From positions 1 through 64,000 of the forward strand of contig CAZCRK010000002.1 of the NCBI GenBank assembly GCA_964501035.1: a stretch of DNA of 64,000 nt, in the 5' to 3' direction. Every line of letters begins with the position of its first letter. Within the stretch, counting starts at the first letter, position 1. Shown here piece by piece: positions 4,117 through 25,554 of the stretch. The translations under genes were made by a program, and so were the position numbers. Under the pieces are notes generated by a model. It saw only the letters and a list, made by a program, of their open reading frames with translations, was not told the origin of the DNA and ran no database searches.

Positions 4117-4128
4117 AGGTTGTTACAT

Positions 4129-4476: not shown

Positions 4477-4575
4477 ATTTACAGATAAATCTTGTTTGCA
4501 ATCATATCAAGAAACTTTTAGTTTATATCCAATGAAAATGGGTATAATTTCATCAAAACACCACGAAAATATTAA

Positions 4576-5502: not shown

Positions 5503-5560
5503 TCCTAAAAATCAAAAATTACCGTTAAATTCAACACTTAACTATTCTTAAATTAAACCT

Positions 5561-11119: not shown

Positions 11120-11273
11120 CTGTAGTTTAATTATTTTGGATTCATTATAATTAAACTATATCGAACAATATAATTTAAACATAATAAAAGATATATAGGT
11201 AAAAATAAATAATTAAATAAAAGAATTTTTTTAATTCTATAGTTAAAACATGTGTTATTGTTTAAATTTTTCA

Positions 11274-11657
11274 ATGAGTAATAAGATGAAAAAAGAGAAT
11301 CTTACAAATGAGCAATTTGCTGTAACACAGTTATGCGGGACAGAACCACCATTTTCAGGTAAATTTAACAATCATTATGAAATAGGAATGTATCAATGTA
11401 TTTGTTGTGAGAAAAACTTGTTTGCATCCGAGACAAAGTTTGATTCGGGCTCTGGGTGGCCAAGTTTTTTTCAACAAATAAGTCCAAATGCTATACATAT
11501 GAAAGAAGATACATCAGCAGGATTAACTCGCACTGAAATAACATGTGCATCATGCGGTTCTCATTTAGGACATATCTTCAATGATGGTCCAAAACCCACA
11601 GGTAAACGATATTGTGTAAATTCCTTAGCACTAAAATTCAAGAAGGAAATTAAATGA
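11274..11657 (+). CDS. msrB: peptide-methionine (R)-S-oxide reductase
   Basis: GTEPPF, KFDSGSGWPSF, HLGHIFNDGP, RYCVNS; two CxxC zinc motifs; start uncertain (11250/11274/11286). Confidence 0.95.
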   Translation: MSNKMKKENLTNEQFAVTQLCGTEPPFSGKFNNHYEIGMYQCICCEKNLFASETKFDSGSGWPSFFQQISPNAIHMKEDTSAGLTRTEITCASCGSHLGHIFNDGPKPTGKRYCVNSLALKFKKEIK

Positions 11658-14020
11658 TTCATCCAATTTTGAAATGGTTATTTGTCCAATATAATAAACG
11701 TCCTTTGAAAAAAAAATATTTTCATGGCAGTATTAGCATTAAGGGTATTAAAAATGAGATAAGTGTTATTAGAGATACATGGGGTATCCCTCATATTAAA
11801 GCTGAAACTATCGAGGAGTTAATATTTGCACAAGGATGGGTGCATGCTCAAGATCGTTTTTGGCAAATGGAGTTAAATCGCAGAACAGGTCAAGGTAAAT
11901 TAGCTGAAGCTTTTGGTAAAGCGGCATTAGATACAGATAGACTAACTCGTACCCTTGGGTTTAATAGATTGGCACAAGAAGATTACAATTTAATGGATGA
12001 TGTTAATAAAAATTTACTTCATCAATATACAAATGGAATAAACTCATGGTTAACTTCGTCTAAACTTCCGATTGAATTTCTGCTTACAAAAATAAAACCT
12101 GAACCATGGACACCGATTGATTCACTCGCCTTTGGACGGGTTATGACTTGGACGTTATCTCATGGTTGGTCAGGGTCATTAACACGCCAAGATATTATTG
12201 AAAAAGTAGGGATAGAAATGGCAGAGGAATTGGCGATTTACTATCCTGAGGATAATCCAGTTGAATTACCTGAAGGACTTTCGATAAATTTAAACGTTGA
12301 CAAAATGGTAGAGTCTGCAACAGGTCCATTTTTAAACAAAGATTTAGAGGGTGGGGGGCGAGGTTCAAATGCATGGGTAGTTACTGGCAAACTAACAGAT
12401 ACTGGAAGACCTGTCTTGTGCAATGATACACATTTGAAACTATCAACACCTGGAGTTTGGTATATCAATTATTTGAAATCTAATGATGGTTATAATGCTA
12501 CGGGTGCATCTCTTGCAGGAATTCCTGGTGTAATGTTAGGTCATAATGAGTTTACATCATGGGGAATGACGTTAGCATTTACTGATGTGGAAGATATTTT
12601 TATTGAAAAAGTTGATGTCACTGATAAAGAAAAGTATGAATATAAAGGGGAATCAATTTCTTTAGAGTCTTTTGAAGAAATTATTTCGGTAAAAGGAAAA
12701 CCAGACCATGTAGAAAATGTACGTAAAACAATTCATGGACCTCTCATCGGTGGGGTAACTGGAAGAGAAAAATTTGCACTTTCTTTGTCTTCAAAGTCGT
12801 TACAACCCAACCAAATTGTGCGTGGTTTTATGGAAATTAGTCAGTCAAAAAATTGGGATGAGTTTGTCATTGGAGTGAAACGAATTGAAGCCCCTCAACT
12901 TAATATTGTATATGCAGATGTTAAAGGTAATATTGGCCTTGCAGTTACAGGGAATATTCCAATTCGGAATAAAGGAAATGGCCAACTACCTGTTCCAGGT
13001 TGGAGTGGAGAATTTGATTGGGGAGTTGATATTCCACTAGATGAAATGCCTAAAGTTCTTAATCCTAAAGAAGGGTATGTGATTTCAACAAATAATGCAA
13101 TTGCAGATGATTCCTATCCATACTTCCTTGGAAACTCATTTATGAATGGCTATCGAGCAAAACGAGTAAAAAGTGTATTTGAATCTTCAAAACCAATTAC
13201 CCAAGATATTTGTAAGTCTTTGCATGGCGATGTATATTCAATTCCTGGTCAAGAATTCGTAGAAGGCTTGATAAAAGGATTTCGAACAGCAAAACCAAAA
13301 GCACAGAAGATGATTGATATTTTGTCAGATTGGAATTATGTTTTAGATACGGATTCAGTAGGGGGGACTGTATATCAAGTTGTTATATACTTCTTAGTGA
13401 GAAATATTGTTGAGCCAAAACTTGGAAAAGAGTTAACTGATAAATATTTGGGGGTAGGAGAACATCCTTTGTTACTTCCTGTTAGTGAGCTTTTGGGGCA
13501 TACTACACCAGCTTTGTTTAGAATGGTGCAAAATACAAATTCCAAATGGATAAAATCAGATAAGGAGTTATTTTCATTAATTGAAAACTCTCTAAACCAA
13601 ACATGTAATTGGCTTGAAAAACGGTTTGGCATTGATTCTGAGAATTGGAATTGGGGAGAAATCCATCAAGCACAATTTAGACATAGTTTGTCTATTCAGC
13701 CACCCATGGATAAAATTTTTGATATTGGTCCGTATCCAATTGGTGGAGATACAGATACGGTATGTCAAACAGCTTTTAACCCTTCTTCACCATACCACCC
13801 TACTGAATGGTGTCCATCAATACGATTTATCATTGATGTTGGAAATTGGGAAAATTCTCATATAATTTGCCCTCCAGGAATTAGTGGTATTCTTGGAAGT
13901 AAACATTACGATGATTTGGCAAACCTTTGGATAAAAAATGAATATATCCCGTTAAAGTGGAATTGGAAAAATATTGAAAAAAATGGTAGAAATCATCTTA
14001 AATTAGTACCACAAGGTTAA
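11654..14020 (+). CDS. penicillin acylase family (S45 Ntn-hydrolase)
   Basis: RDTWGIPHI, AQDRFWQM, catalytic GSNAW, NDTHL, NIVYADVKGNIG. Confidence 0.92.
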   Translation: MIHPILKWLFVQYNKRPLKKKYFHGSISIKGIKNEISVIRDTWGIPHIKAETIEELIFAQGWVHAQDRFWQMELNRRTGQGKLAEAFGKAALDTDRLTRTLGFNRLAQEDYNLMDDVNKNLLHQYTNGINSWLTSSKLPIEFLLTKIKPEPWTPIDSLAFGRVMTWTLSHGWSGSLTRQDIIEKVGIEMAEELAIYYPEDNPVELPEGLSINLNVDKMVESATGPFLNKDLEGGGRGSNAWVVTGKLTDTGRPVLCNDTHLKLSTPGVWYINYLKSNDGYNATGASLAGIPGVMLGHNEFTSWGMTLAFTDVEDIFIEKVDVTDKEKYEYKGESISLESFEEIISVKGKPDHVENVRKTIHGPLIGGVTGREKFALSLSSKSLQPNQIVRGFMEISQSKNWDEFVIGVKRIEAPQLNIVYADVKGNIGLAVTGNIPIRNKGNGQLPVPGWSGEFDWGVDIPLDEMPKVLNPKEGYVISTNNAIADDSYPYFLGNSFMNGYRAKRVKSVFESSKPITQDICKSLHGDVYSIPGQEFVEGLIKGFRTAKPKAQKMIDILSDWNYVLDTDSVGGTVYQVVIYFLVRNIVEPKLGKELTDKYLGVGEHPLLLPVSELLGHTTPALFRMVQNTNSKWIKSDKELFSLIENSLNQTCNWLEKRFGIDSENWNWGEIHQAQFRHSLSIQPPMDKIFDIGPYPIGGDTDTVCQTAFNPSSPYHPTEWCPSIRFIIDVGNWENSHIICPPGISGILGSKHYDDLANLWIKNEYIPLKWNWKNIEKNGRNHLKLVPQG

Positions 14021-14022
14021 TT

Positions 14023-14634
14023 ATGGAAGATAAAGAATTTAAAGAACCAAATTTTACAATAAATAAAGTGTACACACGTACAGGTGATTCAGGCGACACC
14101 TCACTTGTTGGGGGACAGCGATTACCCAAAGATCATATTCGTATTGAAGCTTATGGTGAAGTGGATGAGTTAATTGCCGTGATAGGTGGTTGTCGAGAAG
14201 AAGCACGTAACTATTTAAAGCAATCATCCGATGCATCAGTGTTAGTTGATAGTTTGCATCGAGTGCAACATGAGCTTTTTAATTTAGGGTCATCACTCGC
14301 AACATTGAATGAAGATTTATCTAACAATATGCCAAAAATTACAGAAAAACAAATTGATGCACTCGAAGCAGATATTGATACGGCAAACGAATCACTTTCA
14401 ACATTACATTCATTTGTTTTGCCGGGAGGTAATTCTGTTAATATTTGGTTACATATTGCTCGAAATGTTTGTAGAAGAGCAGAAAGAAGATGTGTTACTC
14501 TTCAAAGAGCTAATGCAATCGATGAAAATGCACTCAAGTATTTAAACCGATTATCCGATGCGTTGTTTGTCTGGAGTCGATGGGTAAATCATATATTAAA
14601 AAATGATGAAGAATTATGGAACCCTAATATATAA
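14023..14634 (+). CDS. ATP:cob(I)alamin adenosyltransferase, PduO type
   Basis: VYTRTGDSGDT, AYGEVDEL, FVLPGG, RNVCRRAER, YLNRLSD. Confidence 0.93.
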   Translation: MEDKEFKEPNFTINKVYTRTGDSGDTSLVGGQRLPKDHIRIEAYGEVDELIAVIGGCREEARNYLKQSSDASVLVDSLHRVQHELFNLGSSLATLNEDLSNNMPKITEKQIDALEADIDTANESLSTLHSFVLPGGNSVNIWLHIARNVCRRAERRCVTLQRANAIDENALKYLNRLSDALFVWSRWVNHILKNDEELWNPNI

Positions 14635-14662
14635 AAAAAGTCCGGCTTGACCGGACTTTTTT
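14634..14662. terminator. bidirectional intrinsic terminator
   Basis: AAAAAAGTCCGG-CTTGA-CCGGACTTTTTT between convergent genes. Confidence 0.85.
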
Positions 14663-14686
14663 ACTAATGTAATTCATTTCTTTAAA

Positions 14687-16489
14687 TTACTTATTCAATA
14701 GTCCAGCTTTCCTGTAAATATTCATTTGTACTTCTGAAAACTCTCCCTGAATCTCATTTCCAGAAGGGAGCATAATGTTACCTGTTTCTAAGTCAACTTC
14801 AATTTCTTGATTGGTTTCAAGTCCTGTTGAAACTAAATCAGCACGCACTATTGGATACCCTTTATTGATTGCATTTCTCTCATATATTGCACCAAATGAT
14901 TCAGCAATAATCATTGTAACACCAAGGCTTTCAAAACAATCTACAGCTTGTTGCCTAGAAGAACCGGCCCCAAAATTTTTCCCGGTAACAACAATATCTC
15001 CGGGCTTTACTTTTTTGGAAAAATCTTCATATCCAGATAAATTATCAAATGCGTATTGTCCCATTTCGTTAATGTCAGTAATGGTTAAATATCTATTATG
15101 GAAAATCATATCTGTATCAATATTATCTTGGTCAATCACCCAAACCCGTCCTTTAAACTTAGACTGTTTAGCATTCGCTTTAGAATCAGATTTCTGTGTG
15201 ATAACTGGATTACTATTTTTAGAAGAACTAAACAGAATAGGTGTATCAGGAATTTCATTAGACAGAGTAATCACTCCTGCTATTGCAGAAGCAGCAACAG
15301 CTTTTGGTGATGTTAAATACACTTCACCTTTACCCTGCTTACCTGCATAATTCCGATTACCTGTACTAACCGTGGTTTCACCAGGACCATTTTGTCCAAC
15401 CTGTCCTGCTGCACAACCCCCACAGCCAGCATTACTAACCAGCGCACCCGCTTCTTTAAATACTTTGATTAAGCCCTCATCCAAACATTGTTTCCATACT
15501 TCATCTGTACTTGGAACAATTTTTAAAACTACCCCAGGAGCAACTTTGTTTCCTTCTAGAATTTCAGCTGCAGCACGCATATCTTCAATTCGACCATTGG
15601 TACAAGACCCAATAAATGCAGAACCAATTTTCTTACCTGCTAAACTTTTAATATCTGTAACATCTTCAGGGTGTCCAGGTCTTGAAATTTGAGGTTCCAA
15701 CCCATCAACATCAATTTCAATAATTTTATCGTAAATTGCATCATTATCTGCTAGTACAGGTTCGATTTTTTCACCTCTTGCATTTGAACAAAAATCAAGA
15801 ACATCTTGATTTGGTGGAAACAATCCAATGATACCACCCATTTCAGTTGCCATTGAAGACATAGTAATTCTACCTGATAGATCAAGATTATCAATTGCTT
15901 CACCATAAAATTCGGCTGCATACCCTAAAAGTCCATTTGCACCCATAACTTTCAAGACTGCTAAGGTCAAATCTTTTGGAGTAGAAAGTTGTGAAGGTTT
16001 TCCTTTTAAAACCACTTTCATTGATTTGGGTACTTTGAACCATACCTTACCAAAAGCAAAAGCATGGGCAATATCCACATCTCCCATACCTTGTCCAAAG
16101 GCACCAATTGCACCTAAAATATTTGCATGTGAATCTGTTGAAACGAATGTGGAACCCGGAACTACTAAACCGGTATCTATGGCTAAATGCGTTCCAATAC
16201 CAGAGTCTATATCAAAAACTTGAATGGAATGCTCTCTCGCAAATTCTCTACAAATCTGCTGATTTGTAGCATATTTTTGGTCAGAACCACCTGGGTTTGT
16301 ATCAAATGTAAAAAATGTTTTAGATGAATCATCAATATCAAGATTATTTTCTCTTAAATTTTTTACAACATTTGCTCCACCAAAATCACGAGCAACACGA
16401 ACATCGATACCAATATCTACAATATCACCTGGTTTAACATTCTTGTTTGAATGTGATTCAATTATTTTTTCAATTATTGTTTTACCCAT
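14687..16489 (-). CDS. fused large+small subunit aconitase-family hydratase (LeuC/LeuD- or AksD/E-like)
   Basis: STDSHAN, IGSCTNGR, GCGGC Fe-S ligands; C-terminal swivel domain NIDTDMI..NFGAGSSRQQA. Confidence 0.9.
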   Translation of the reverse strand: MGKTIIEKIIESHSNKNVKPGDIVDIGIDVRVARDFGGANVVKNLRENNLDIDDSSKTFFTFDTNPGGSDQKYATNQQICREFAREHSIQVFDIDSGIGTHLAIDTGLVVPGSTFVSTDSHANILGAIGAFGQGMGDVDIAHAFAFGKVWFKVPKSMKVVLKGKPSQLSTPKDLTLAVLKVMGANGLLGYAAEFYGEAIDNLDLSGRITMSSMATEMGGIIGLFPPNQDVLDFCSNARGEKIEPVLADNDAIYDKIIEIDVDGLEPQISRPGHPEDVTDIKSLAGKKIGSAFIGSCTNGRIEDMRAAAEILEGNKVAPGVVLKIVPSTDEVWKQCLDEGLIKVFKEAGALVSNAGCGGCAAGQVGQNGPGETTVSTGNRNYAGKQGKGEVYLTSPKAVAASAIAGVITLSNEIPDTPILFSSSKNSNPVITQKSDSKANAKQSKFKGRVWVIDQDNIDTDMIFHNRYLTITDINEMGQYAFDNLSGYEDFSKKVKPGDIVVTGKNFGAGSSRQQAVDCFESLGVTMIIAESFGAIYERNAINKGYPIVRADLVSTGLETNQEIEVDLETGNIMLPSGNEIQGEFSEVQMNIYRKAGLLNK

Positions 16490-16512
16490 TAAAGATTCCT
16501 CAATTTATATGT

Positions 16513-16554
16513 ATCCTACAGCGATGCAAGATTAATCAATCATCGCTGTAGGAT
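16513..16554. repeat. perfect 14-bp inverted repeat (intra-operon hairpin)
   Basis: ATCCTACAGCGATG-N14-CATCGCTGTAGGAT between the dehydrogenase and aconitase genes. Confidence 0.8.
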
Positions 16555-16571
16555 TTGACTTTTATTAAATA

Positions 16572-17768
16572 CTATAGTTTTGCAATAACTGCATCTGCCA
16601 TTTCTTTGGTGGAAGCAGCACCGTTTTCAACAACATCAGCTCTACCTGACATTTTAGCCATATCATATGTTTGAACTTTGCCTTCAGAAATCACGTCTGA
16701 AACAGCATTTCTAATTTTCTTAGCAATGTCTTGTTCGTCAATAAAGTCTAGCATTTGGCAAGCGGTTTCAATCATTGCGATTGGATTTACTATCGAAGTT
16801 GGATAATCAGCATATTTAGGAGCAGAACCATGTGTAGGTTCAAACACACCAATACCTGTTTCAGGGTTAAACTGCGCTGATGATGCAAATCCCAATCCAC
16901 CAATTAAACCTGCAAATCCATCTGAAACAATATCTCCAAACATATTTCCTGCTACAATGACTCCATAATTTTCAGGATTTTTCGTTAACCACATCATTTG
17001 AGCATCAATATTTGTGTTCCAGAGTTCAATATCAGAAAAATCTGCTTTTTGTATCTGTTGTGCCATTTTATACATCATTCCAGATGTTTCACGAATCACA
17101 TTTGGTTTTTCACAAACCGTTACAGATTTATATCCATATTTTTTCGCATAATCAAATGCTGCCCGTAAAATTCGTTCTGTAAATTTCTTTGAGAAAATAC
17201 GCGTAGAAACAGAAATTTCTTCAACTGGGCACCAACCAAAGTTTTTGGAAAACCGTGGATGTGACATTAATGCATCATACACTGGAGCAGGTGGATTACT
17301 CCATTCAACACCACCATATAAGCCCTCTGTGTTTTGACGGAAAATAACTGCATCAACTAATGGTTCTTCAATTGTATCATTTGGACCCCTTCGAATGAAG
17401 TTTAAAGGATTACCCTTATACGATTTACATGGTCGCATACAAATATCTAAACCAAAATGTTGCCGAAGTCTTACAATTGGACTTGCATAAACTAATCCTT
17501 TTTCTTTTAATTCAGGAGATAGTTCATCAAAAGCTTCATCCTTTGGTTTTGACGTAATTGCTCCAAATAAAGCAATTTTATGTTCTGCAATAAGGTCAAT
17601 CGTTCGTTGGGGTAGTGGGTCTCCTTCATTGCACCAAAACTCCCATCCAATATCACCTTCCACATAGTTTGCATCAAACCCTGCAACATCTAAAACTCTT
17701 ATAGTTTCTTCAAGTACATTTTTACCAATACCATCACCTGGCATTGTAACAATTGTTCTTTTATCCAT
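16572..17768 (-). CDS. beta-decarboxylating dehydrogenase, homoisocitrate dehydrogenase-like
   Basis: PGDGIG, YASPIVRLRQ (cf. fungal Lys12 YSSPIVALR), RQNTEGLY, NMFGDIVSD, FEPTHGSAPKYA. Confidence 0.85.
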   Translation of the reverse strand: MDKRTIVTMPGDGIGKNVLEETIRVLDVAGFDANYVEGDIGWEFWCNEGDPLPQRTIDLIAEHKIALFGAITSKPKDEAFDELSPELKEKGLVYASPIVRLRQHFGLDICMRPCKSYKGNPLNFIRRGPNDTIEEPLVDAVIFRQNTEGLYGGVEWSNPPAPVYDALMSHPRFSKNFGWCPVEEISVSTRIFSKKFTERILRAAFDYAKKYGYKSVTVCEKPNVIRETSGMMYKMAQQIQKADFSDIELWNTNIDAQMMWLTKNPENYGVIVAGNMFGDIVSDGFAGLIGGLGFASSAQFNPETGIGVFEPTHGSAPKYADYPTSIVNPIAMIETACQMLDFIDEQDIAKKIRNAVSDVISEGKVQTYDMAKMSGRADVVENGAASTKEMADAVIAKL

Positions 17769-17829
17769 TATTTTATCCTTTTCTGAATATTAATTACTAC
17801 ATTATTTTACGCAATTTGTTATTATTATA

Positions 17830-19800
17830 TTAAATCTTTTCTTTCACCCAATTTTCCAGACCGCCAGTCAAAATTAACTCTTGTGCGGCTACTCCAACCG
17901 GAGATATAGCATACACTTTTTCATTTACCATTAATTCTGCTTTAGCAAAATTGAGTGTTGAAGTTAATCCTGTTTTTACCGTGAGTTTTTCTTCACCAAA
18001 TTGAGATTTTAAATCATTCACCAGTTCAGGTGCTTCGATTACTAAAAATCCATTATTGATTGCATTTCGTTTGTAGGTTTCGGAAAATGAACCTGCAAGG
18101 ACCATTTTAATTCCGCGATATTTTAGAGCAGTGGCGGCCTGTTCGCGAGATGAACCTGACCCGAAATTATATCCACCCACAACAAAATCACCTTCTTTAA
18201 CTATATTGCCAAATTCAGTGTCATAATTTTCCATCACAACTTCTGCCTGTTGCTCTGGAGTAAAATCATCAATATAAGTGTATTTTCCGGGATAAATACC
18301 GTCAGTGTTCAAGTTATCTTGGTGGCAAAAAATCAATTCACCCGTTAATGATTCTGGAAAACCATCCATTATTGTAACTGATGCAGATCCACTTGTATTT
18401 TTATGATGTTTTTCCATTGTTCCAATCGGTTGAGTGTTGTCAAATCTCGCAGGCGAAGTAATTTCCCCTGCAATTGCCGATGCTGCAACCACAACAGGTG
18501 AGCCCAAATATGCTTTTGCGGATTTTGCACCCATTCTACCTTTAAAATTTCGGTTTGTTGCTGAGATTCCGATTTCATTTTCTTCTAATAATCCCACACC
18601 TAAACCGATGCACATTCCACAACCCGGAGGAATTGTTATTGCCCCAGCATCAACCAATTTTTGCCAATCACCTCGTCGTTCACTTTCGGCTTGAACTTCA
18701 CTTGACGCAGCAGCTACATAAAACTCAACACCATCAGCAACGGATTTGCCAGTGACAACTTCAGCCGCTTGGGCTAAATCCTCAACTCGTGAATTCACAC
18801 AGGAAACCAAATATGCTTTATCAATTTTCATATTCTTTGCTTCTGCATCTGTGATTGTCATTGTGGTTTTGAGGTTATCAGGACCAGCGATAAAGGGTTG
18901 AATTGAACCTAAATCGATAGTAAATGTTTTAGCATAATATGCATCTTCATCTGCTAGTGGGAGATTATCTAGTAATTCTTCTATGCGTATATGATTCATT
19001 CGTGGATGGAGACCATTTACAGAATCAATATCAGATTTTACACCTGCTAACCCACGTTCAGCAACAAAATCTGCACGATTTCTGAGCCAATCAATTGTAA
19101 TTTGGTCGATTGGGAACACACCCGCCAACGCACCCCATTCGGTGGTCATATTGGCAATAGTTAATCGTTGATCAATTGAAAATTGATGTAAACCGTCTCC
19201 GCTAAATTCCAATGCGTGATTGAGCGCTTCATCCTTATTGAAATGTCCACAAATGGCTAAAATCACATCTTTACCTGCAACACCCGGTTTAAGCGTTCCG
19301 TTTAACGCAACTTTGGCAACTGGAGGAACTTGCCACCATGTGCGACCTGTCGCCCAAAGTGCAGCCGCATCCGTACGGACAACCGGAGTTCCAAGAACAC
19401 CCAAACCACCATACATATTCGAATGACTATCAGAAGCAACCATCATTCCGCCTGGGAATGCATAACCTTCTTCACACATAATTTGATGTCCAATTCCACG
19501 ACCTGCAGGATAAAAATCTACACCCATTTCATCGGCAAAACTTTCAATTCCTGCATATTTCTTTAAATTGGCTTCGGATGTGTCTTGAACATTATGGTCA
19601 AGAGCATATACCGGCAAGCGTGGGTCTGCCATTTTGGTGGCACCAATGGATTTAAATTTATTCATCACCGCACCTGTATTATCGTGAGTCATACAGTGAT
19701 CTGGTTTAATAGATATAAAATCTCCACTTTTCACAGTATGTCCGTCTTCTAAGCCAACTGCATATTTTTGGGCTATTTTCTCAATTAAATTCTGTTTCAT
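17830..19800 (-). CDS. lysF: single-chain homoaconitase, fungal Lys4/LysF-like
   Basis: QNLIEKI, HCMTHDN, YPAGRGIGHQIM.EEGYAFP, ASDSHSNMYGG, WATGRTWWQVPPV, LVSCVNSR, GCGMC, LNTDGIYPGKYTY; ATG 19800 after GAGAGG. Confidence 0.85.
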   Translation of the reverse strand: MKQNLIEKIAQKYAVGLEDGHTVKSGDFISIKPDHCMTHDNTGAVMNKFKSIGATKMADPRLPVYALDHNVQDTSEANLKKYAGIESFADEMGVDFYPAGRGIGHQIMCEEGYAFPGGMMVASDSHSNMYGGLGVLGTPVVRTDAAALWATGRTWWQVPPVAKVALNGTLKPGVAGKDVILAICGHFNKDEALNHALEFSGDGLHQFSIDQRLTIANMTTEWGALAGVFPIDQITIDWLRNRADFVAERGLAGVKSDIDSVNGLHPRMNHIRIEELLDNLPLADEDAYYAKTFTIDLGSIQPFIAGPDNLKTTMTITDAEAKNMKIDKAYLVSCVNSRVEDLAQAAEVVTGKSVADGVEFYVAAASSEVQAESERRGDWQKLVDAGAITIPPGCGMCIGLGVGLLEENEIGISATNRNFKGRMGAKSAKAYLGSPVVVAASAIAGEITSPARFDNTQPIGTMEKHHKNTSGSASVTIMDGFPESLTGELIFCHQDNLNTDGIYPGKYTYIDDFTPEQQAEVVMENYDTEFGNIVKEGDFVVGGYNFGSGSSREQAATALKYRGIKMVLAGSFSETYKRNAINNGFLVIEAPELVNDLKSQFGEEKLTVKTGLTSTLNFAKAELMVNEKVYAISPVGVAAQELILTGGLENWVKEKI

Positions 19801-19815
19801 ATATCCTCTCTTTTT

Positions 19816-19844
19816 AACCGCGAATTGCACTAATTGCGCTAATT
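19816..19844. repeat. 9-nt-period repeat arm (left IR of cassette 1)
   Basis: AACCGCGAATT-GCACTAATT-GCGCTAATT; inverted partner at 20041-20066. Confidence 0.8.
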
Positions 19845-20028
19845 AATTTGTTAAAATGATTCTTTCATATTTGAGTGATTCTTCACCAAAGTTGATTAAT
19901 ATTCCAAGTTCTATACCGGTTACTTTCAAATAGTTAATAACCTGGGCTTTTTCAATATCACCTAACTTCTTGACTTATTTAAGTTCAAGTATTATTTTAC
20001 AGGCTAATTCTTTGTGAATTAATGTCAT
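19843..20028 (-). pseudogene. GxxExxY-family protein remnant with internal deletion and stop
   Basis: Translates MTLIHKELACKIILELK*VKKLGDIEKAQVINYLKVTGIELGILINFGEESLKYERIILTN; both termini match the family and the central half is missing. Confidence 0.85.
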
Positions 20029-20040
20029 TTCATTTTTCTT

Positions 20041-20066
20041 TCGCGAAATTAGCGTAATTTGTGGTT
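20041..20066. repeat. 9-nt-period repeat arm (right IR of cassette 1)
   Basis: Reverse complement AACCACAAATTACGCTAATTTCGCGA. Confidence 0.8.
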
Positions 20067-20071
20067 CAGTT

Positions 20072-20602
20072 TTATTTAAATGGTTCGAAACTCACAAAAT
20101 CTGCGTGATGTACTATGATAGATTCAGTGGTTCGTTTGCCTAAATCACCTTCTTTTGAATGTGTTCCAATAATATGTTGGATTTCTGGTGATAAATCAAA
20201 TCGTGCTGCAACGGCTAAACCACTGAATGGATGTCGTACAATTTTACCATAATTTGAAGTGGTTAATTTTCCATCTACAATTTCGTATTCAAACAATTTG
20301 CCAATGTCAATTAAGATTGCACCTGAAATGAGTGTATCCATATCAATTTCAATTTCATCACCAAAATTATCTTGCATTCGTTTGGCAATATCCACTGATA
20401 AATGCACACAAGTGCGTTTATGATTCATAAATGACACATTACAGTCTTTAATGAGCAAGGAAAACGGAATCGTTTCCAAATCTTCTGGAGTTAATACCGA
20501 GTTTTCGATTGCCCACACCCACGCATCAAGTGTTTTCTGTTTTATGGTTTCATCTTTAATCCAGTTTATTTCTGGCCATATTTTTAGTACTTGTTCTTTC
20601 AT
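20072..20602 (-). CDS. HD/HDIG-domain protein with degenerate HD motif
   Basis: MNHKR..., GAILIDIGK (ID in place of HD), RHPFSG, HIIGTHS, HHADF. Confidence 0.8.
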   Translation of the reverse strand: MKEQVLKIWPEINWIKDETIKQKTLDAWVWAIENSVLTPEDLETIPFSLLIKDCNVSFMNHKRTCVHLSVDIAKRMQDNFGDEIEIDMDTLISGAILIDIGKLFEYEIVDGKLTTSNYGKIVRHPFSGLAVAARFDLSPEIQHIIGTHSKEGDLGKRTTESIIVHHADFVSFEPFK

Positions 20603-20620
20603 TTCATTTTCTCCTTTTTT

Positions 20621-20640
20621 ACCCGCGAATGTCGCGAATT
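20621..20640. repeat. 9-nt-period repeat arm (left IR of cassette 2)
   Basis: ACCCGCGAATGTCGCGAATT; inverted partner at 20845-20871. Confidence 0.7.
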
Positions 20641-20832
20641 CATTTTGAAATTTCGGATTCTAATTTTCTAACCAACTTATTGTATTGTCCCTTACTTAGA
20701 TATATTCGATGATAGGGATTCTCCAAAGTTTGCTTAAGGTCTTTTTTTATGATCAAACTGCCATTCTACAATTTGTTGAGTTTCTAAGTTCACATCCACA
20801 ACATATCTTATATCTTTAGTCTCTTTTTGCAT
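20640..20832 (-). pseudogene. small hypothetical gene (63 aa) interrupted by a +1 frameshift in an A7 run
   Basis: Removing one A gives MQKETKDIRYVVDVNLETQQIVEWQFDHKKDLKQTLENPYHRIYLSKGQYNKLVRKLESEISK*; preceded by purine-rich GAGAAG. Confidence 0.6.
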
Positions 20833-20844
20833 TATATCTTCTCT

Positions 20845-20871
20845 TTAGCGAAATTAGTGTAATTCGCGGTT
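20845..20871. repeat. 9-nt-period repeat arm (right IR of cassette 2)
   Basis: Reverse complement AACCGCGAATTACACTAATTTCGCTAA, abutting the citF stop codon. Confidence 0.8.
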
Positions 20872-22433
20872 TACTTCTTTACTTTAAATATTGAATCAAT
20901 GACGGTTCCGTCCACCCATTTGACCACACCAACGACTTCATCAGTAAATTCTGGTTTTTGAGGTGCACCACCAAGCATATCATCCACTTCTGCTTTAATA
21001 TCTTCAATGGTTCGTATGGGTAAACCACTATGTTTGGTTGCTTCAATTAAATCTTGTCGTAATGGATTGATTGCTATTCCACGCTCAGTTACAATTACAT
21101 CAATAAGTTCACCTGGTCCAACTATTGTCGTAACTTCATCAACAATAATAGGAAGTCGATTTCTAAATGATGGAATAGGTAAAATGGTGCATTTTGAGAA
21201 TAAACAATTTTGCCAACCACCAATACCGTGCAACATTTGACCATCAGAATGTGTTACCACATTTGCATTAAAATTCACATCTACTTCCGTTGCACCTAAA
21301 ACAACTGCATCAAGTATTCCAGCAAAATTACCTTTTCCGTGCCAATTATAAGATGTAAATGGAGATGTATTTTGATGTCCACCGTTTTCTCGCATTGACC
21401 GTACACCATCTAAATCAAAAGTTTGCCCATCTAGGATATAGTCGGTTAATCCTTCTTCTAACATTTCAACCAAATATTTATTGGACCCACCTCTAATAAA
21501 TCGTGCTTTGATATTGGCTTCTTTCATCATTTCTTTTAGGTATATTGCAAATGCAAGAGATGTTCCACCTGCACCTGCTTGAAACGAGAATCCATCTTTC
21601 AGAATTCCTGCTTCCCTCACAAACTTTGCAGTGAGTTCAGCAATAAAAAGTCTATCGGGTGATTTAGTGAGTTTGGTTGTTCCTGACACAATTTTTTCAG
21701 GTTCACCGATTTTATCCAGAACAACAACATAATCTACATTTTGCCCTTGAATCTGCCACGGTACACATGGGAAGGGTACTAAATTATCTGTTACTACAAT
21801 CACTTTATCAGCATACATTGAATCTACTAGTCCAAACCCGAGTAAACCGCATGCTGAGGGACCGCGATCACCCGTTGCATTTCCCATCATATCAGCGGTC
21901 GGTGTGGCGATAACAGCAATATCAATATGTACTTCACCATCTTGTACAGCTTGCCAACGACCTCCATGAGATCTCAAAACTGCCAATCCGTCCATATTAC
22001 CTTCAGAAGCATTTTTACCAAGTGGACCGTTTAACGATCCTTCAATATGATGAATCACTCCATTATTCATATGCTCTATCATTGGTTTGTGACATGGAAA
22101 TGCAGCAGATGGAAACCACATCAAATCTTTAACACCCTTTTCAGATGCGATATCAAAAACTTGATTCATGACTAAATCACCATTTCTGAAATGATGGTGC
22201 GATGAAACAGTCATTCCATCTTTGAGTCCGCATTTTTCCAAAGCTACTTGCAATGAATCCACAATTTTGTTTCCATCTAATGGATAATCATTACATGAAC
22301 TGATTGGAGGAGCAGCCTTGGTGCCTGTTGGTGAATGTTTACCCACACCTTTAAAAGGTATTGTCTTTTTTCCATTCACTTCTGTTGGAACCATTCTTCC
22401 AACTGCATTTTTTACTAAATCTAATCCTTCCAT
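20871..22433 (-). CDS. citF: citrate lyase alpha subunit-like (CoA/ACP transferase)
   Basis: GLKDGMTVSSHHHFRNGD, RSHGGR, FSFQAGAGG, LGATEVDVNFNANV, TERGIAINP, DGTVIDSI. Confidence 0.9.
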   Translation of the reverse strand: MEGLDLVKNAVGRMVPTEVNGKKTIPFKGVGKHSPTGTKAAPPISSCNDYPLDGNKIVDSLQVALEKCGLKDGMTVSSHHHFRNGDLVMNQVFDIASEKGVKDLMWFPSAAFPCHKPMIEHMNNGVIHHIEGSLNGPLGKNASEGNMDGLAVLRSHGGRWQAVQDGEVHIDIAVIATPTADMMGNATGDRGPSACGLLGFGLVDSMYADKVIVVTDNLVPFPCVPWQIQGQNVDYVVVLDKIGEPEKIVSGTTKLTKSPDRLFIAELTAKFVREAGILKDGFSFQAGAGGTSLAFAIYLKEMMKEANIKARFIRGGSNKYLVEMLEEGLTDYILDGQTFDLDGVRSMRENGGHQNTSPFTSYNWHGKGNFAGILDAVVLGATEVDVNFNANVVTHSDGQMLHGIGGWQNCLFSKCTILPIPSFRNRLPIIVDEVTTIVGPGELIDVIVTERGIAINPLRQDLIEATKHSGLPIRTIEDIKAEVDDMLGGAPQKPEFTDEVVGVVKWVDGTVIDSIFKVKK

Positions 22434-23620
22434 TTTTCCCCTAACATTCCTGATGCTATTGCTAAGTTAACAGTATGAATTGCCCGTTTTACGACTGGCG
22501 GATCAATCATTTTTGAACCAAGTGAAACCACTCCTAATCCTTTTGCTTCTGCTTCATCAAACGCCAGTACAATTTTCTTTGCTTTTTCGATTTCAGATTC
22601 TGATGGAGTAAATTCTTCGTTTATTGGATTAATTTGTCGTGGATGAATGCATCCCTTACCATCAAAACCAAGTGATTTTGCTTCCTGAACAGATGCTCTT
22701 AATCCTTCTTCATCATTTACATCAGAGAACACAGTATCTATCGGTTGTATTCCTGTCGCTCGCGCTGCATTCACCAACATTGAGCGCGCAAAAAATGACT
22801 CATTACCTTTATGGGTTCGTTGAGTTCCAATATCTGCTGTATAGTCTTCAAGTCCAATCGCTAATGCCACATTATGTTTGCTGGCTTGAGCAATGGATAG
22901 AGCATTTAAAATTCCGAGTGCTGATTCTAAAATTGGCATCAAGTAAACAGGTTTTGAGCGTCCGCATTTTTTCATCACTTCTGAAATTTTGTTGTCAAAC
23001 TTATGTAGTTCTTCAGGAGTTTCAATTTTAGGGATTAAAATTAAATGAACATTATGTGGGACAATTGCTTCGATATCTTGTAATCCCAATTCACCTTGAT
23101 TGATTCTCACCATTCGTTCAGCGCCAAAAAAGTCAAGTGTTCTAAGTGCATTTCGCACAATAAACCGAGCCGACATTTTTTCTGATGGTGCTACAGAATC
23201 CTCCAAATCCAAAATGATACCATCCGGTTTGTGAATTCCTGCATTCATCATTAATTTTGGTTGTGAACCGGGTAAATATAATCTACTTCGTCTAAATCTA
23301 TCGCGAGTAGAATTATATGTACAATGTTCCTTCATTTCAGGGAGTGACTCTAGTTTTAAGCCTGGGTGGGCTGATTTTACTGTGGCTTCAATACGTGCCT
23401 TCAATACAAAATACTGTCCGCCATTATCCTTGATTAAAAACGTACCGGATGTAATGCCTAAATCCTTCAATGTAGAATGCACAACTTCTGTTAGTTTTAT
23501 GTCATGGAGTATTTTTGTTTTAGAAATGATATCTATCTGAAGTTTATCAGATGTATTTGGAGTGTATGAAATAAAAAAATCAGATTTTGTATTTTCATTA
23601 CCGCTTGTATAGGTATTCAT
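22421..23620 (-). CDS. citE: fused CitD-like acyl carrier protein + CitE-like acyl-CoA lyase
   Basis: N-terminal ~80 aa resemble CitD (G...KSD, IKDNGG..FVLKARIE); then RRSRLYLPG, LDLEDSVAP, GLEDY, GFDGKGCIHPRQI, KMIDPPV. Confidence 0.88.
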   Translation of the reverse strand: MNTYTSGNENTKSDFFISYTPNTSDKLQIDIISKTKILHDIKLTEVVHSTLKDLGITSGTFLIKDNGGQYFVLKARIEATVKSAHPGLKLESLPEMKEHCTYNSTRDRFRRSRLYLPGSQPKLMMNAGIHKPDGIILDLEDSVAPSEKMSARFIVRNALRTLDFFGAERMVRINQGELGLQDIEAIVPHNVHLILIPKIETPEELHKFDNKISEVMKKCGRSKPVYLMPILESALGILNALSIAQASKHNVALAIGLEDYTADIGTQRTHKGNESFFARSMLVNAARATGIQPIDTVFSDVNDEEGLRASVQEAKSLGFDGKGCIHPRQINPINEEFTPSESEIEKAKKIVLAFDEAEAKGLGVVSLGSKMIDPPVVKRAIHTVNLAIASGMLGEKWKD

Positions 23621-23716
23621 CTAACCCTCTCATTATGTTCAAGTATATGTTTTTTTGGTTTAAACATATAGGGAAAATTTCACAAGAATAGATATATATA
23701 AAAAGAAAAATATAAC

Positions 23717-23745
23717 AAAAAGCACCGAAAAAATCGATGCTTTTT
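23717..23745 (-). terminator. intrinsic terminator after pepF
   Basis: Minus strand AAAAAGCATCG-loop-CGGTGCTTTTT directly after the stop. Confidence 0.7.
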
Positions 23746-23751
23746 ATATTG

Positions 23752-25554
23752 TTACTCATCAATAAGTGTTTCTAATTGGTCAATTAAAGATTCAATGAAT
23801 TTGACGCTTTTCCTCCAAAAGTTTGCATCATTAATATCTATACCCAATCCAGATGTTAACTCTGTTGGGCTTGCAGATCCACCAGAAGCTAAGAACTCCT
23901 TAAACTTAGGAATAAAATTATCACCTTCATCCAAGAATTGTTGATATAATGCTAACACCAACAGATTAGCAAAATTGTATGCATACACATAAAATGGTAC
24001 ATTTAACATATGAGGGATAGTTGACCATTCCCAATCATATTCATCGGTATATTCAACTGCATCACCAAACATTAACTCAAGTTCTTTACGATACAAACCA
24101 CATAATTCATCTGATGAAGCTAGTTTATTTGAAATTAAATCATGTGAAGCAATTTCAAATCTACTAAACATATTTTGTCTATGACTTGTTGCAAAAATAT
24201 CTTCAAGCTTGCTCGTTAATAGTGTCATTTTTGTTGATTTATCTAAATCTTGATTTAACAACATATTAGTTAACACCATTTCAGAGAAAACTGAAGCTGT
24301 TTCTGCAAGTGGTAGTATTGAATGATAGTTAAACAATGATTGCTTGCTTGCAAGCATTGCATGAATTGCATGCCCTAACTCATGAGCCATTGTTGAAACA
24401 TCTCTTAGATTTCCAGTAAAATTCAGTAACACATAGGGTTTTACATCTGGACTTGAGCTAGAACAAAAAGCACCGCCACGTTTATTTGCTACAGCTGGTG
24501 CATCTATTCTTTGTTCATCAAACATAGACTTTGCCATTTCATAAAAATCATCATCAAATGACTTGAATGCATCCAAAACTAGTTGTTTTGATTCTTCATA
24601 CGAATATTTTTTTGATACATCCGGCAACGGTGCATAGATATCAGCTAAAGTTAGTTTTTCTAAACCTAACATTTTCTTTTTCAGCTTATAGTATCGTTGA
24701 ACCAAAGAATACGACTCCGTTGTAACATCTATGAGCGCTTGAACTGACTTATCATCTAAATCATTGTTAATATTCATCACACTAATAGGTGAGGGATAGT
24801 TTCGAGTATCTTTATTAATGTTGAAATCTTTAATGATATTATTGAAAATATTCGTAAAAATCAACTTATTATCTTTGAAAGTATCTAAAACTGTTTTCAT
24901 TGCACGTTGTCTAACTTTTGCATCAGGGTGCTGTCTTAATGCACGAATTTCTTCTAACGTCATTTTTTTTGTTTTACCATCAATCTCAAAATCAAATGAA
25001 AAGTTAGATGTAAACTCACCATATAATTTTTTAAAAGCATTTTTCCCTGTAATGTTTTTCAAGGTTGATAATTGCTCTTCTTTTTCAGATAGATTATATT
25101 TTTGAGTTTTTCTAGTTTGTTCGAGTGAATATTTATAATTAGACAAAACCGCTGAATTTTCTAATGTTTCTAAATTATCCAGTTTAGCTAATTCTAGGTT
25201 AAAGAATACCAATTGATTTGATATATTTGATAGTTTTTCTTCAACAGACATTTCTAATGTTTTAGTAACATCATCACTCGTATTAACTGAAACCGCAAGT
25301 CCAGAAAATTGACTGATTTTATATAAAGGGGTGAAAATGCTTTCAAATTTTTCAAATGCATCTTTAAGATCAGTATCTGATAGTGTGTTTAATTTTCCTT
25401 TATAATCTTCAGCAAACTGCTTTGCTTCTTTGACTCCATTATTCAGTACGGCTTCAATTTTTGGATCACCAATTCCATTACATAAATCAGTTAAATCCCA
25501 TCGTACATTCTCAGCACCTGTTTTTTGAGCATTTTTAGTTAATATTTCTGTCAT
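23752..25554 (-). CDS. pepF: oligoendopeptidase F (M3B)
   Basis: RWDLTDL, KRGGAFCS, TMAHELGHAIH, AETASVFSE, FYVYAY. Confidence 0.92.
   Translation of the reverse strand: MTEILTKNAQKTGAENVRWDLTDLCNGIGDPKIEAVLNNGVKEAKQFAEDYKGKLNTLSDTDLKDAFEKFESIFTPLYKISQFSGLAVSVNTSDDVTKTLEMSVEEKLSNISNQLVFFNLELAKLDNLETLENSAVLSNYKYSLEQTRKTQKYNLSEKEEQLSTLKNITGKNAFKKLYGEFTSNFSFDFEIDGKTKKMTLEEIRALRQHPDAKVRQRAMKTVLDTFKDNKLIFTNIFNNIIKDFNINKDTRNYPSPISVMNINNDLDDKSVQALIDVTTESYSLVQRYYKLKKKMLGLEKLTLADIYAPLPDVSKKYSYEESKQLVLDAFKSFDDDFYEMAKSMFDEQRIDAPAVANKRGGAFCSSSSPDVKPYVLLNFTGNLRDVSTMAHELGHAIHAMLASKQSLFNYHSILPLAETASVFSEMVLTNMLLNQDLDKSTKMTLLTSKLEDIFATSHRQNMFSRFEIASHDLISNKLASSDELCGLYRKELELMFGDAVEYTDEYDWEWSTIPHMLNVPFYVYAYNFANLLVLALYQQFLDEGDNFIPKFKEFLASGGSASPTELTSGLGIDINDANFWRKSVKFIESLIDQLETLIDE

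Follow-up and report, generated by a model that had tools for sequence, protein, structure and literature searches.

A citrate-lyase-like operon of Marinimicrobia that may carry lysine-derived 2-oxoadipate backwards through the upper alpha-aminoadipate pathway

What does a citrate-lyase-like complex do in an operon whose other enzymes resemble a homoaconitase and a homoisocitrate dehydrogenase, in a genome where no homocitrate synthase is found? This question is raised by six genes at positions 14687-23620 (minus strand) in the first 64,000 nucleotides of contig CAZCRK010000002.1 (GenBank assembly GCA_964501035.1), the stretch of DNA referred to here as the window. The window is contig C2 of a 1.87-Mb Marinimicrobia (SAR406) assembly, which is 95.7% complete and belongs to the Fibrobacteres-Chlorobi-Bacteroidetes (FCB) group, as a preliminary description made from the letters of the window had assumed. 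That description suggested that the lyase acts on homocitrate, either in place of the synthase on the way to lysine or at the end of a chain that runs backwards. The data discussed below favor the second suggestion. With a probability of roughly 0.55, the operon is a catabolic module for 2-oxoadipate derived from lysine, in which the upper alpha-aminoadipate pathway runs in reverse and a lyase replaces the synthase.

The operon starts with a CitD-CitE fusion (22421-23620; 399 amino acids), followed by a CitF-type acyl-ACP (acyl carrier protein):carboxylate transferase that is similar to the citrate lyase alpha subunit (20871-22433; 520 amino acids), and an HD-superfamily protein in which the dyad His is missing (20072-20602; 176 amino acids). 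Next are a Lys4-type (fungal-type) fused homoaconitase (17830-19830; 666 amino acids from a GTG), a beta-decarboxylating dehydrogenase of the Iso_dh family, referred to as type a (16572-17768; 398 amino acids), and a second fused aconitase-family hydro-lyase of the HacA/LeuC-LeuD type, Acn2 (14687-16489; 600 amino acids). All six are on the minus strand. The listing of open reading frames (ORFs) confirmed these co-oriented genes at the positions first reported, and their Pfam and NCBIfam content, called with models that have curated cut-offs, agrees with the families proposed earlier (ACP-CitE fusion, CitF, HD-like, Lys4-like, a dehydrogenase that was called Lys12-like there and is assigned to Iso_dh here, and a second aconitase). 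The citDE and citF genes overlap by 13 bases. The Lys4-type gene probably starts at ATG 19800 rather than at GTG 19830; a purine-rich stretch lies ahead of this ATG, which gives a protein of 656 amino acids as in its relatives. A domain scan that took in all ORFs with 100 or more amino acids except six overlapping or antisense frames (51 of 57) also bore out the absence from the window of an HMGL-like synthase, a citrate synthase, and a RimK/LysX domain, LysW being too small for such a scan.

Two sets of sequences were used for comparison. The phylum sample is one fixed set of 101 genomes, including the window's own genome (G000; G numbers refer to sampled genomes, L numbers to loci, and f numbers to families). 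The linkage set consists of the 80 best loci encoding a CitF relative, on which the window proteins were run by tblastn; many of these loci end at contig edges. Nearly all of them are titled Candidatus Neomarinimicrobiota, Marinimicrobia, or Fidelibacterota, and CitF is 70-88% identical across the set. The earlier proposal was drawn from a single gene order, and a synteny check revealed that this linkage is conserved: the core order CitDE, CitF, HD-like, Lys4, Iso_dh recurs among the 80 loci. CitDE is present in 61 loci, the HD-like gene in 51 (adjoining CitF in 51/80), the Lys4-type gene in 46, and Iso_dh in 37, where 27 are of the window's type a and 10 of a type b. A PrpD-family gene occurs in 31 loci, a cation-efflux gene in 30, a glutaryl-coenzyme A (CoA) dehydrogenase in 19, and a DASS transporter in 4. 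The part beyond Iso_dh is visible for at least 2.5 kb in 29 loci; here, PrpD follows directly in 28, an acyl-CoA dehydrogenase in 19, and the efflux gene in 23. Hence, the usual order in Marinimicrobia is CitDE, (DASS), CitF, HD-like, Lys4, Iso_dh, PrpD, acyl-CoA dehydrogenase, and efflux protein. The window is a variant of this order, with Acn2 in the place of PrpD and with the acyl-CoA dehydrogenase on another contig, C7. Acn2 is also found in the CitDEF clusters of G033 and L051. Other arrangements include Melioribacteraceae L071, with Iso_dh, HD-like, Lys4, CitDE, and CitF together in changed order; family f18, represented by G033, where CitF-CitDE is divergent from HacA, HacB, efflux, Iso_dh, HD-like, and Acn2; and G041, with the order HD-like, HacA, HacB, Iso_dh, PrpD. 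Outside these lineages, CitF is often alone or accompanied by CitDE only, and it is solitary at L058, L060-L065, L067, L068, and L074.

Which metabolism surrounds the cluster? The own genome looks like that of a streamlined peptide degrader with numerous secreted peptidases. Encoded in the window itself are CstA, peptidases of the M3 and M23 families, and gingipain-like enzymes of the C25 and C10 families that carry a type-9 secretion tail. On other contigs, the genome has the usual citrate synthase, aconitase, and isocitrate dehydrogenase, which argues that the operon is not the tricarboxylic acid (TCA) cycle set. Similarly, the operon is not a leucine set, since no match to the HMGL family (PF00682) was found in the 95.7% complete genome, hence no LeuA, CimA, or homocitrate synthase; the homocitrate synthase of G055 gives no tblastn match in it either. 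On contig C47, the genome encodes a lysine 6-transaminase (TIGR03251, 641.8 bits; cut-off 520.8) that adjoins an L-piperideine-6-carboxylate (P6C) dehydrogenase (NF050084, 779.8 bits; cut-off 730), and this pair lies next to an oligopeptide-transporter ATPase gene. Together, the two enzymes are predicted to make 2-aminoadipate from lysine and would therefore be a source of 2-oxoadipate. The only Sacchrp_dh protein of the own genome, with 387 amino acids (G000:C8:32925-34085; L092:8923-10086), has L-lysine 6-dehydrogenase 3ABI as its best solved relative (94.6 bits) and might provide another entry into lysine breakdown in addition to the transaminase.

In the phylum sample, CitF is detected at E<=1e-20 in 60 of the 101 genomes (45 over the cut-off) and P6C dehydrogenase over its cut-off in 76 (77 at E<=1e-150). 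The latter is present in 57 of the 60 CitF-positive genomes and in 20 of the 41 CitF-negative ones, while neither was found in families f6, f13, f15, and f17. Outside the phylum, three of five CitF-bearing genomes carry P6C dehydrogenase, among them a member of the Melioribacteraceae with the whole cluster. As a separate observation, f6 and f13 encode lysine 6-transaminase (6/6 and 3/4) and glutaryl-CoA dehydrogenase (6/6 and 4/4) together with no detected P6C dehydrogenase (0/6 and 0/4); another aldehyde dehydrogenase may be responsible for the P6C step in these genomes, which are very small (about 1 Mb in f6).

The acyl-CoA dehydrogenase of the cluster is, judged by its relatives, a glutaryl-CoA dehydrogenase. 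For the ortholog in the own genome, the ten best relatives in the PDB score 390-445 bits and the next family 262 bits; these ten are named glutaryl-CoA dehydrogenase or "putative," with one deposited as acyl-CoA dehydrogenase. On contig C7 (L105:2380-3981, 4050-5222, and 5226-6656), this gene is followed by that of a DASS symporter and preceded by a divergent GlcD-type flavin adenine dinucleotide (FAD)-linked oxidase of 533 amino acids, a unit that may serve the uptake and oxidation of glutarate or hydroxyglutarate. Searched with the own genome's protein as the single query (E<=1e-100), glutaryl-CoA dehydrogenase was found in 53 of the 101 genomes. The E1 component of 2-oxoglutarate/2-oxoadipate dehydrogenase is present in three genomes, all of them in f17 and none CitF-positive, and it was not found in the own genome. 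The 77 genomes with P6C dehydrogenase divide into 35 with CitF only, 16 with glutaryl-CoA dehydrogenase only, 22 with both, and 4 with neither; for two of these last four, CitF is present elsewhere in the genus. Likewise, no glutaryl-CoA dehydrogenase was found among the 42 members of families f16, f18, f20, and f22, of which 37 have CitF and 37 have P6C dehydrogenase. Of all 60 CitF-positive genomes, 37 gave no match for it. For the 35 genomes of the CitF-only group, 2-oxoadipate made in the forward direction would have no known consumer, while the reverse direction has both a source and sinks; this difference favors the reverse route. Hence, the catabolic chain put forward in the preliminary description agrees with the comparisons made here, namely the conserved linkage, the co-occurrence with lysine-to-aminoadipate genes, and a distribution largely complementary to that of glutaryl-CoA dehydrogenase; its substrate and direction are inferred.

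The nature of the substrates is suggested by the families of the dehydratases and by comparison with lysine operons in the phylum. The Lys4-type protein passes the homoaconitase equivalog TIGR00139 with 853.5 bits (cut-off 529.9), and 46 of the 101 genomes encode such a protein over the cut-off. An operon in G055, of the same class, carries LysX (329.1 bits; cut-off 275.6), ArgC/LysY, a LysJ-like transaminase, [LysW]-aminoadipate kinase (384.6 bits; cut-off 223), and [LysW]-lysine hydrolase (369.1 bits; cut-off 363). It also encodes a homocitrate-synthase-like HMGL protein (406.4 bits, just under the cut-off of 413.55), a Lys4-type enzyme (660.9 bits), an Iso_dh protein, and an aminotransferase. 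By its gene content, this operon covers lysine synthesis via alpha-aminoadipate in full and includes a normal synthase. Residues 373-454 of the synthase-like protein (L090:11001-12407; L090 is G055:C27) match the ligand-binding part of LysM (57.6 bits), a stretch that may be a built-in lysine-sensing domain. The operon in G006 extends from LysX to LysJ; its homocitrate synthase scores 466.3 bits (cut-off 413.55), and its homoaconitase is the split HacA/HacB. In a tree of 18 aconitase large domains, the Lys4-type proteins fall into a single clade (100/100), in which the enzyme of the G055 lysine operon branches as sister to all those linked to clusters. HacA proteins from CitDEF clusters join their counterpart in the G006 lysine operon (93/87), apart from the LeuC of two leucine operons, and Acn2 constitutes a separate, long-branched clade near LeuC (82/83). 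Collectively, the homoaconitase equivalog, the G055 and G006 operons, and the trees point to the homocitrate series as substrates.

The dehydrogenase is consistent with this suggestion. It matches Pfam Iso_dh with 250.2 bits, and its best NCBIfam models are methanogen homoisocitrate dehydrogenases (AksF2, 243.4 bits; cut-off 540); in the PDB, a putative NAD-dependent isocitrate dehydrogenase (168.5 bits) and the Thermus homoisocitrate dehydrogenase (149.9 bits) are matched. The Iso_dh of the G055 lysine operon shares 60-65% identity with type b of the clusters and 47% with type a, to which the window's enzyme belongs. In a tree with 12 rows, it joins both cluster types in a compact group, with LeuB and the TCA isocitrate dehydrogenase on very long branches. 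Moreover, the cluster enzymes and the G055 enzyme share their substrate-loop and cofactor-loop motifs. The substrate loop reads S-P-I where we take E. coli isocitrate dehydrogenase to have a substrate-contacting Asn. Two further comparisons were discarded. The cofactor-loop motif, presumably of the NADP type, is identical in the cluster Iso_dh, the biosynthetic G055 enzyme, and the TCA isocitrate dehydrogenase, and was dropped as a clue to direction. In the alignment with the Thermus homoisocitrate dehydrogenase, the cluster enzyme has V at the position of the Arg that we assume to be its specificity residue, and the neighboring R of G000 is not conserved in relatives.

Each of the clusters inspected pairs two dehydratases, one being of the Lys4 type or split HacA/HacB and the other PrpD-family or Acn2, and all four combinations occur (G000, L011, G033, and G041). 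Acn2 has Aconitase (289.9 bits) and Aconitase_C (55.2 bits) matches and scores 394.8 bits with the hacA_fam model (cut-off 385.7). The fungal Lys4 catalyzes the homoaconitate/homoisocitrate half of the isomerization only, and another aconitase, Aco2, takes care of the homocitrate half; PrpD and aconitase constitute an analogous two-enzyme isomerization in the methylcitrate cycle. The two different dehydratases per cluster resemble both of these pairs and would thus fit the isomerization between homocitrate and homoisocitrate, provided that Lys4 performs one half-reaction. In contrast to PrpD of the methylcitrate cycle, however, the PrpD-family protein of the clusters scores 83 bits, far under the PrpD equivalog cut-offs of 458-950, and in the window it is replaced by a fused aconitase; no PrpD was found in the own genome.

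As for the lyase itself, the citrate lyase CitDEF (EC 4.1.3.6) of Klebsiella, E. coli, and lactic acid bacteria works together with CitC, CitG, and CitX, and it exchanges the acyl group on its carrier before a cleavage that regenerates the acetyl-carrier. The operon has the corresponding CitF-type transferase and CitE-type lyase, and a candidate CitD-type carrier with the conserved serine. In contrast to CitDEF, the carrier is fused to the lyase, and both CitE and CitD are under their equivalog cut-offs. The CitD part (approximately residues 1-90) matches the Pfam ACP family PF06857 with 35.5 bits (residues 12-83; cut-off 25.1) and NCBIfam citD with 37.2 bits (cut-off 63.5). The CitE part matches HpcH_HpaI with 191.3 bits and citE TIGR01588 with 303.6 bits (cut-off 443.4), and the closest PDB relatives of CitDE are malyl-CoA lyase and CLYBL. 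Ser13-Asp14 is invariant in ten of ten CitD-CitE fusions from several phyla. This invariance argues for a working carrier, with Ser13 as the presumed attachment site of the prosthetic group by analogy with CitD. CitF matches Pfam CitF with 465.1 bits and TIGR01584 with 518.9 bits, slightly over the cut-off of 501.45.

How would the carrier be made functional? CitG was found in 0 of the 101 genomes, the own genome included. CitX was not found in the own genome, the only genome searched for it, and the search did not extend to MdcG-type transferases. For CitC (PF08218), weak partial matches of 19-36 bits were obtained, most of which span the model (182 positions) from position 9 to about 70-105. 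ORFs of 155-215 amino acids account for nearly all of these matches, and since they also occur in CitF-negative families (e.g., 6/6 in f6), they are read as generic small nucleotidyltransferases. The absence of CitG, CitX, and a credible CitC from these searches makes the HD-like protein, which is a fixed member of the operon and has no counterpart in the citrate lyase system, a candidate for carrier priming or maintenance. It has no Pfam match and scores 24 bits with HDIG (cut-off 27.6). As first noticed in the preliminary description, it is a degenerate HD protein: the dyad lacks its His in every sequence examined, with I-D in 11 of 11 aligned relatives and A-D in the distant G033 and G041 proteins. 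The remaining His and Asp residues of the motif are conserved, and the canonical H...HD...D pattern is not present. A structure model (predicted local distance difference test score, pLDDT, 83.4) has a generic HD fold with YhaM as the best match (TMq 0.66), and the fold search returned no specific structural neighbor. The small protein in G041 is 47% identical to that of the window. At E<=0.001, there are 1719 relatives in a large protein collection, and the protein-atlas neighbors are "HD domain / metal-dependent phosphohydrolase" clusters only, from Fidelibacterota and Bacteroidota. Our guess is that the HD-like protein primes or repairs the carrier. Alternatively, the enzymes may work with free CoA esters rather than with the carrier.

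Taken together, the proposed route would proceed as follows. A transaminase would convert 2-aminoadipate to 2-oxoadipate, which Iso_dh would carboxylate reductively with CO2 and a hydride to homoisocitrate. The Lys4-type enzyme would remove water to give cis-homoaconitate, and Acn2 (the PrpD-family protein in most relatives) would add water to give homocitrate. In a catalytic cycle copied from citrate lyase, CitF would act as an acetyl-ACP:homocitrate ACP-transferase, replacing acetyl by homocitryl on the carrier with release of acetate, and the CitE domain would then cleave homocitryl-S-ACP to 2-oxoglutarate and acetyl-S-ACP on the fused CitD. The net reaction would be 2-oxoadipate + CO2 + NAD(P)H to 2-oxoglutarate + acetate. 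Judged by data for citrate analogues, it should be near equilibrium, and flux would be steered by the supply of 2-oxoadipate and the removal of 2-oxoglutarate. Where glutaryl-CoA dehydrogenase is part of the cluster, one might speculate that an oxidative and a reductive branch from 2-oxoadipate balance redox. A broader proposal, for which we see slightly less than an even chance, is that Marinimicrobia and some Ignavibacteria-type relatives possess an undescribed branch of lysine breakdown via a "homocitrate lyase." The carrier of this lyase would be primed without CitG and CitX, possibly by the HD-like protein. If so, the "citrate lyase" genes of this abundant ocean phylum would be markers of amino-acid breakdown rather than of a reductive TCA cycle.

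Several points weigh against the proposed route. Its substrates are all assigned from homology and context, the Iso_dh protein lies under every curated NCBIfam cut-off, and direction and carrier chemistry are proposals as well. The sampled genomes are related and not independent, so counts overstate independence and the complementarity rests on few families. The complementarity also depends on the single-query search for glutaryl-CoA dehydrogenase, and the search for consumers of 2-oxoadipate comprised this enzyme and E1; HglS (DUF1338) and 2-oxoacid:ferredoxin oxidoreductases were not covered. The 20 CitF-negative genomes with P6C dehydrogenase indicate that the cluster is not required with this enzyme; 22 genomes have both routes, and in many clusters glutaryl-CoA dehydrogenase is one of the genes. 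Upstream of 2-oxoadipate, lysine 6-transaminase is not co-distributed with the cluster (0/20 in f14 and 0/15 in f18), such that another lysine entry enzyme must be assumed in these two families, and no candidate for the 2-aminoadipate transaminase was identified. The lysine 6-dehydrogenase-like gene was rejected as a cluster-tied entry enzyme, its close relatives being confined to the taxonomic order of the window's genome and to f13 and not following CitF. Moreover, four good genomes (G055, G071, G079, and G095) have Lys4 and Iso_dh without CitF, a role for the pair being unexplained in three of them; in G071 and G079, it lies at the same Thy1-RadC locus. Finally, a DASS transporter lies between CitDE and CitF in three of the 80 loci and beside the pair in a fourth, and an OadA-like carboxylase subunit follows CitF in G041, neighbors that recall classical citrate fermentation.

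These neighbors bear on the question whether the complex is a true citrate lyase with a private aconitase and isocitrate dehydrogenase. In such a scenario, 2-oxoglutarate from glutamate would be converted via isocitrate and citrate to oxaloacetate and acetate, or imported citrate would be split. CitF scoring over the citrate-lyase alpha equivalog cut-off speaks for true citrate cleavage, and with 98 of the 101 genomes devoid of a detected 2-oxoglutarate dehydrogenase E1, a further outlet for 2-oxoglutarate would be useful. In addition, PrpD enzymes act on citrate and cis-aconitate. Hawley et al. 2017 (PMC5688066) take the citrate lyase of the Marinimicrobia clade SHBH1141 as a marker of the reductive TCA cycle. 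However, a standard aconitase and a standard isocitrate dehydrogenase that could do this work are already encoded elsewhere in the genome, and for citrate one aconitase is enough, yet the clusters keep two different dehydratases. Lys4 is over the homoaconitase cut-off, and together with the cluster HacA it is nearest to lysine-operon enzymes, while the cluster Iso_dh is very distant from the TCA enzyme in the tree and differs from it in the S-P-I loop. CitE falls well under the citE cut-off, and the association with P6C dehydrogenase and the complementarity to glutaryl-CoA dehydrogenase would be left unexplained. Hence, we consider a true citrate lyase unlikely.

Could the chain instead run forward, with the lyase as an ATP-free homocitrate synthase that provides 2-oxoadipate for lysine and aminoadipate, or for glutaryl-CoA and crotonyl-CoA? 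The near-equilibrium estimate given above applies equally to this direction, the own genome lacks an HMGL-type synthase, and the Lys4 and Iso_dh relatives in the G055 lysine operon do run forward. In addition, a glutaryl-CoA dehydrogenase gene lies behind PrpD in 19 of 29 clusters, and with a forward flow almost every gene of the operon would fall into a single sequence of steps. The distribution of the lysine genes is in conflict with this reading. Of the 101 genomes, three have LysX over its cut-off; none of these three is among the 60 with CitF, and the two operons inspected have synthases of the homocitrate synthase type. This distribution, together with the inspected operons, suggests that the phylum uses a synthase when it makes 2-oxoadipate for lysine. 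LysA is over its cut-off in 58 of the 101 genomes, including a normal LysA in 20 of 20 members of f14, in which the cluster is common (E<=1e-40). Where the lyase cluster occurs, nothing known turns aminoadipate into lysine (the fungal Lys2, Lys9, and Lys1 families were not searched). The own genome gave no LysA, no LysX over the cut-off, and no tblastn match for LysZ, LysY, and LysK. Further, in the 35 cluster genomes without glutaryl-CoA dehydrogenase, and with E1 in none of the 60 CitF-positive genomes, no known enzyme would consume the 2-oxoadipate. Condensation from free acetate is also unfavorable at cellular concentrations, as judged by the citrate lyase equilibrium, and known complexes of the citrate lyase type are all catabolic. 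We therefore regard the forward direction as quite unlikely. For the same reasons, the earlier suggestion that the lyase replaces homocitrate synthase in lysine synthesis is not supported in this phylum, and neither is the expected co-occurrence with lysWXZYJK. The anti-correlation with HMGL-type synthases that had been anticipated also fails for the class as a whole, given that LeuA/CimA pairs coexist with the cluster in f16 and f18.

A chain acting on another 2-oxo acid can be envisaged as well. In one version, 2-oxobutyrate would pass via 3-methylmalate, citraconate, and citramalate to pyruvate and acetate, with the complex as a citramalate lyase; in another, a form of leucine breakdown, 4-methyl-2-oxopentanoate would pass via the isopropylmalates to 2-oxoisovalerate and acetate. 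Both aconitase-type large domains of the operon have a methanogen isopropylmalate/citramalate isomerase as the best solved relative (229.5 and 278 bits), but few members of the family are in the PDB, so this best match says little. The weak grouping of Acn2 with LeuC and the hydrophobic character of the Iso_dh substrate loop at two positions point in the same direction, and citramalate lyase is a known complex of the CitDEF type. Moreover, with no LeuA, LeuB, or CimA in the own genome, the enzymes would not be biosynthetic. Against this stand the Lys4 score over the homoaconitase equivalog cut-off and the grouping of the Lys4-type proteins and the cluster HacA with lysine-operon enzymes and not with LeuC. 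LeuB is separated by a very long branch from the cluster Iso_dh family, and the Iso_dh of the G055 lysine operon has the same loop motifs. On balance, a different 2-oxo acid is very unlikely.

That the genes belong to no single pathway, with the lyase pair and the Lys4/Iso_dh pair unrelated and the gene order inherited as synteny within one phylum, is highly improbable. In favor of it, the surroundings of the cluster also conserve Thy1, RadC, and the cation-efflux gene, none of which has an obvious link to it, CitF is often solitary outside the phylum, and the locus in G071 and G079 has kept Lys4 and Iso_dh but no CitF. Against it, Melioribacteraceae L071 keeps five genes together in a changed order, f18 swaps Lys4 for HacA/HacB in a divergent operon pair and still holds CitDE, CitF, HD-like, and Iso_dh together, and CitF occurs with Lys4 in 37 genomes versus Lys4 only in 9, the 23 CitF-only genomes being of families whose inspected clusters (G033, G041, and G049) have split HacA/HacB.

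Returning to the proposed breakdown of lysine-derived 2-oxoadipate, how does it compare with known systems? How bacteria degrade lysine beyond 2-oxoadipate is among the less settled questions of their amino-acid catabolism. As in classical lysine catabolism, lysine 6-transaminase and P6C dehydrogenase are upstream, and glutaryl-CoA dehydrogenase is present in the own genome and in many clusters; unlike in the classical route, no E1 was detected in any of the 60 CitF-positive genomes, and no glutaryl-CoA dehydrogenase in the majority of them. With the upper alpha-aminoadipate pathway (fungal Lys4; HacAB of Thermus and methanogens), the route shares a Lys4 over the cut-off, a related Iso_dh, and the same proposed intermediates. 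It differs in that no homocitrate synthase is found in the own genome and LysX is not found in CitF-positive genomes, with a lyase in the place of the synthase and with the flow proposed to be reversed. Compared with citrate lyase, the proposed substrate is homocitrate, and the partners here are of the homoaconitase and homoisocitrate dehydrogenase types, where those of citrate lyase are a citrate carrier and oxaloacetate decarboxylase.

In Pseudomonas putida, HglS (DUF1338) converts 2-oxoadipate to D-2-hydroxyglutarate, from which 2-oxoglutarate is formed (bioRxiv 10.1101/450254). HglS and the proposed route would both link lysine-derived 2-oxoadipate to 2-oxoglutarate without glutaryl-CoA. 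However, HglS carries out an oxidative decarboxylation with one metalloenzyme, while the proposed route would combine carboxylation, isomerization, and C-C cleavage. If true, this carboxylating reverse-aminoadipate branch would join glutaryl-CoA and HglS as a third way of dealing with 2-oxoadipate, and homocitrate lyase would be a new activity for a well-studied enzyme complex. All of the enzyme families are already known; the combination, the direction, the lyase substrate, and the priming of the carrier would be new if the proposal is right. In agreement with the preliminary description, which knew of no characterized pathway of this composition, a literature search found no "homocitrate lyase" and no such enzyme combination in catabolism. 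With respect to citrate lyase, the Melioribacter genome paper refers only to the lack of ATP-citrate lyase. The proposal also raises a puzzle, namely how a CitD-type carrier becomes functional with CitG in 0 of the 101 genomes and CitX not found in the own genome.

Members of SAR406/Marinimicrobia are among the most abundant heterotrophs of the deep ocean. A cluster present in 60 of the 101 sampled genomes would thus bear on the processing of peptide carbon in the dark ocean, and on the use of "citrate lyase" as evidence for autotrophy in metagenome surveys. The reductive TCA cycle of one clade, as described by Hawley et al. 2017 (PMC5688066), is the only published reading of citrate lyase in this phylum that the literature search returned, and it probably deals with genes of the family discussed here. 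With respect to that reading, the gene context discussed here argues for a heterotrophic amino-acid module and not for CO2 fixation.

Both terminators that had been described as bounding the operon were found as hairpins. An intrinsic-terminator-like hairpin at 14634-14662 (minus strand; a 13-pair stem and then a T run) closes the operon at its 3' end and is common to it and a convergent cobalamin adenosyltransferase gene. The 5' boundary is the terminator-like hairpin of the upstream M3 peptidase gene (23715-23747, minus strand; a 14-pair stem and then a T run). The eight terminator-like sites in the region do not, however, exceed the number in shuffled sequences (6.0, standard deviation 2.2). 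No Rfam family reached its gathering score within 14000-24500, the lysine riboswitch included.

Two gaps in the operon, 19831-20071 and 20603-20870, have similar short motifs at both ends and resemble insertion scars. The first of these, 241 bases between the HD-like and Lys4 genes, carries a decayed C-terminal PD-(D/E)XK_3 remnant (19849-20013, minus strand) with an in-frame stop and a 6-residue deletion, which is 64% identical over 61 amino acids to an intact copy in L019 (E 4.5e-20). One intact PD-(D/E)XK_3 copy is present on contig C117 of the own genome. In relatives, the operons are broken by small same-strand genes that encode PDDEXK_3, HepT-like, MazF/PemK, "23S rRNA-intervening sequence protein," and FmdE-like products (L001:3300-3722, 5361-5738, and 11139-11510; L019:20486-20866; L025:11548-12144; L093:11555-11962; L094:4209-4580 and 5924-6316; L096:8787-9158). 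They look like mobile mini-genes that tolerate or exploit intergenic sites of the operon.

The cation-efflux protein is a cation diffusion facilitator (CDF) protein of approximately 390 amino acids with a ZT_dimer domain, found in L001, L011 (17907-19079), L017, L019, L025, L093, L095, and L096; the closest copy in the own genome is on contig C57. It has no evident link to the pathway, and Fe-S enzymes or chelating tricarboxylates may be relevant. Elsewhere in the window, a stand-alone double-ACT protein of 158 amino acids (9592-10068, minus strand), in this genome that gave no LysA, matches the regulatory C-terminus of aspartate kinase.

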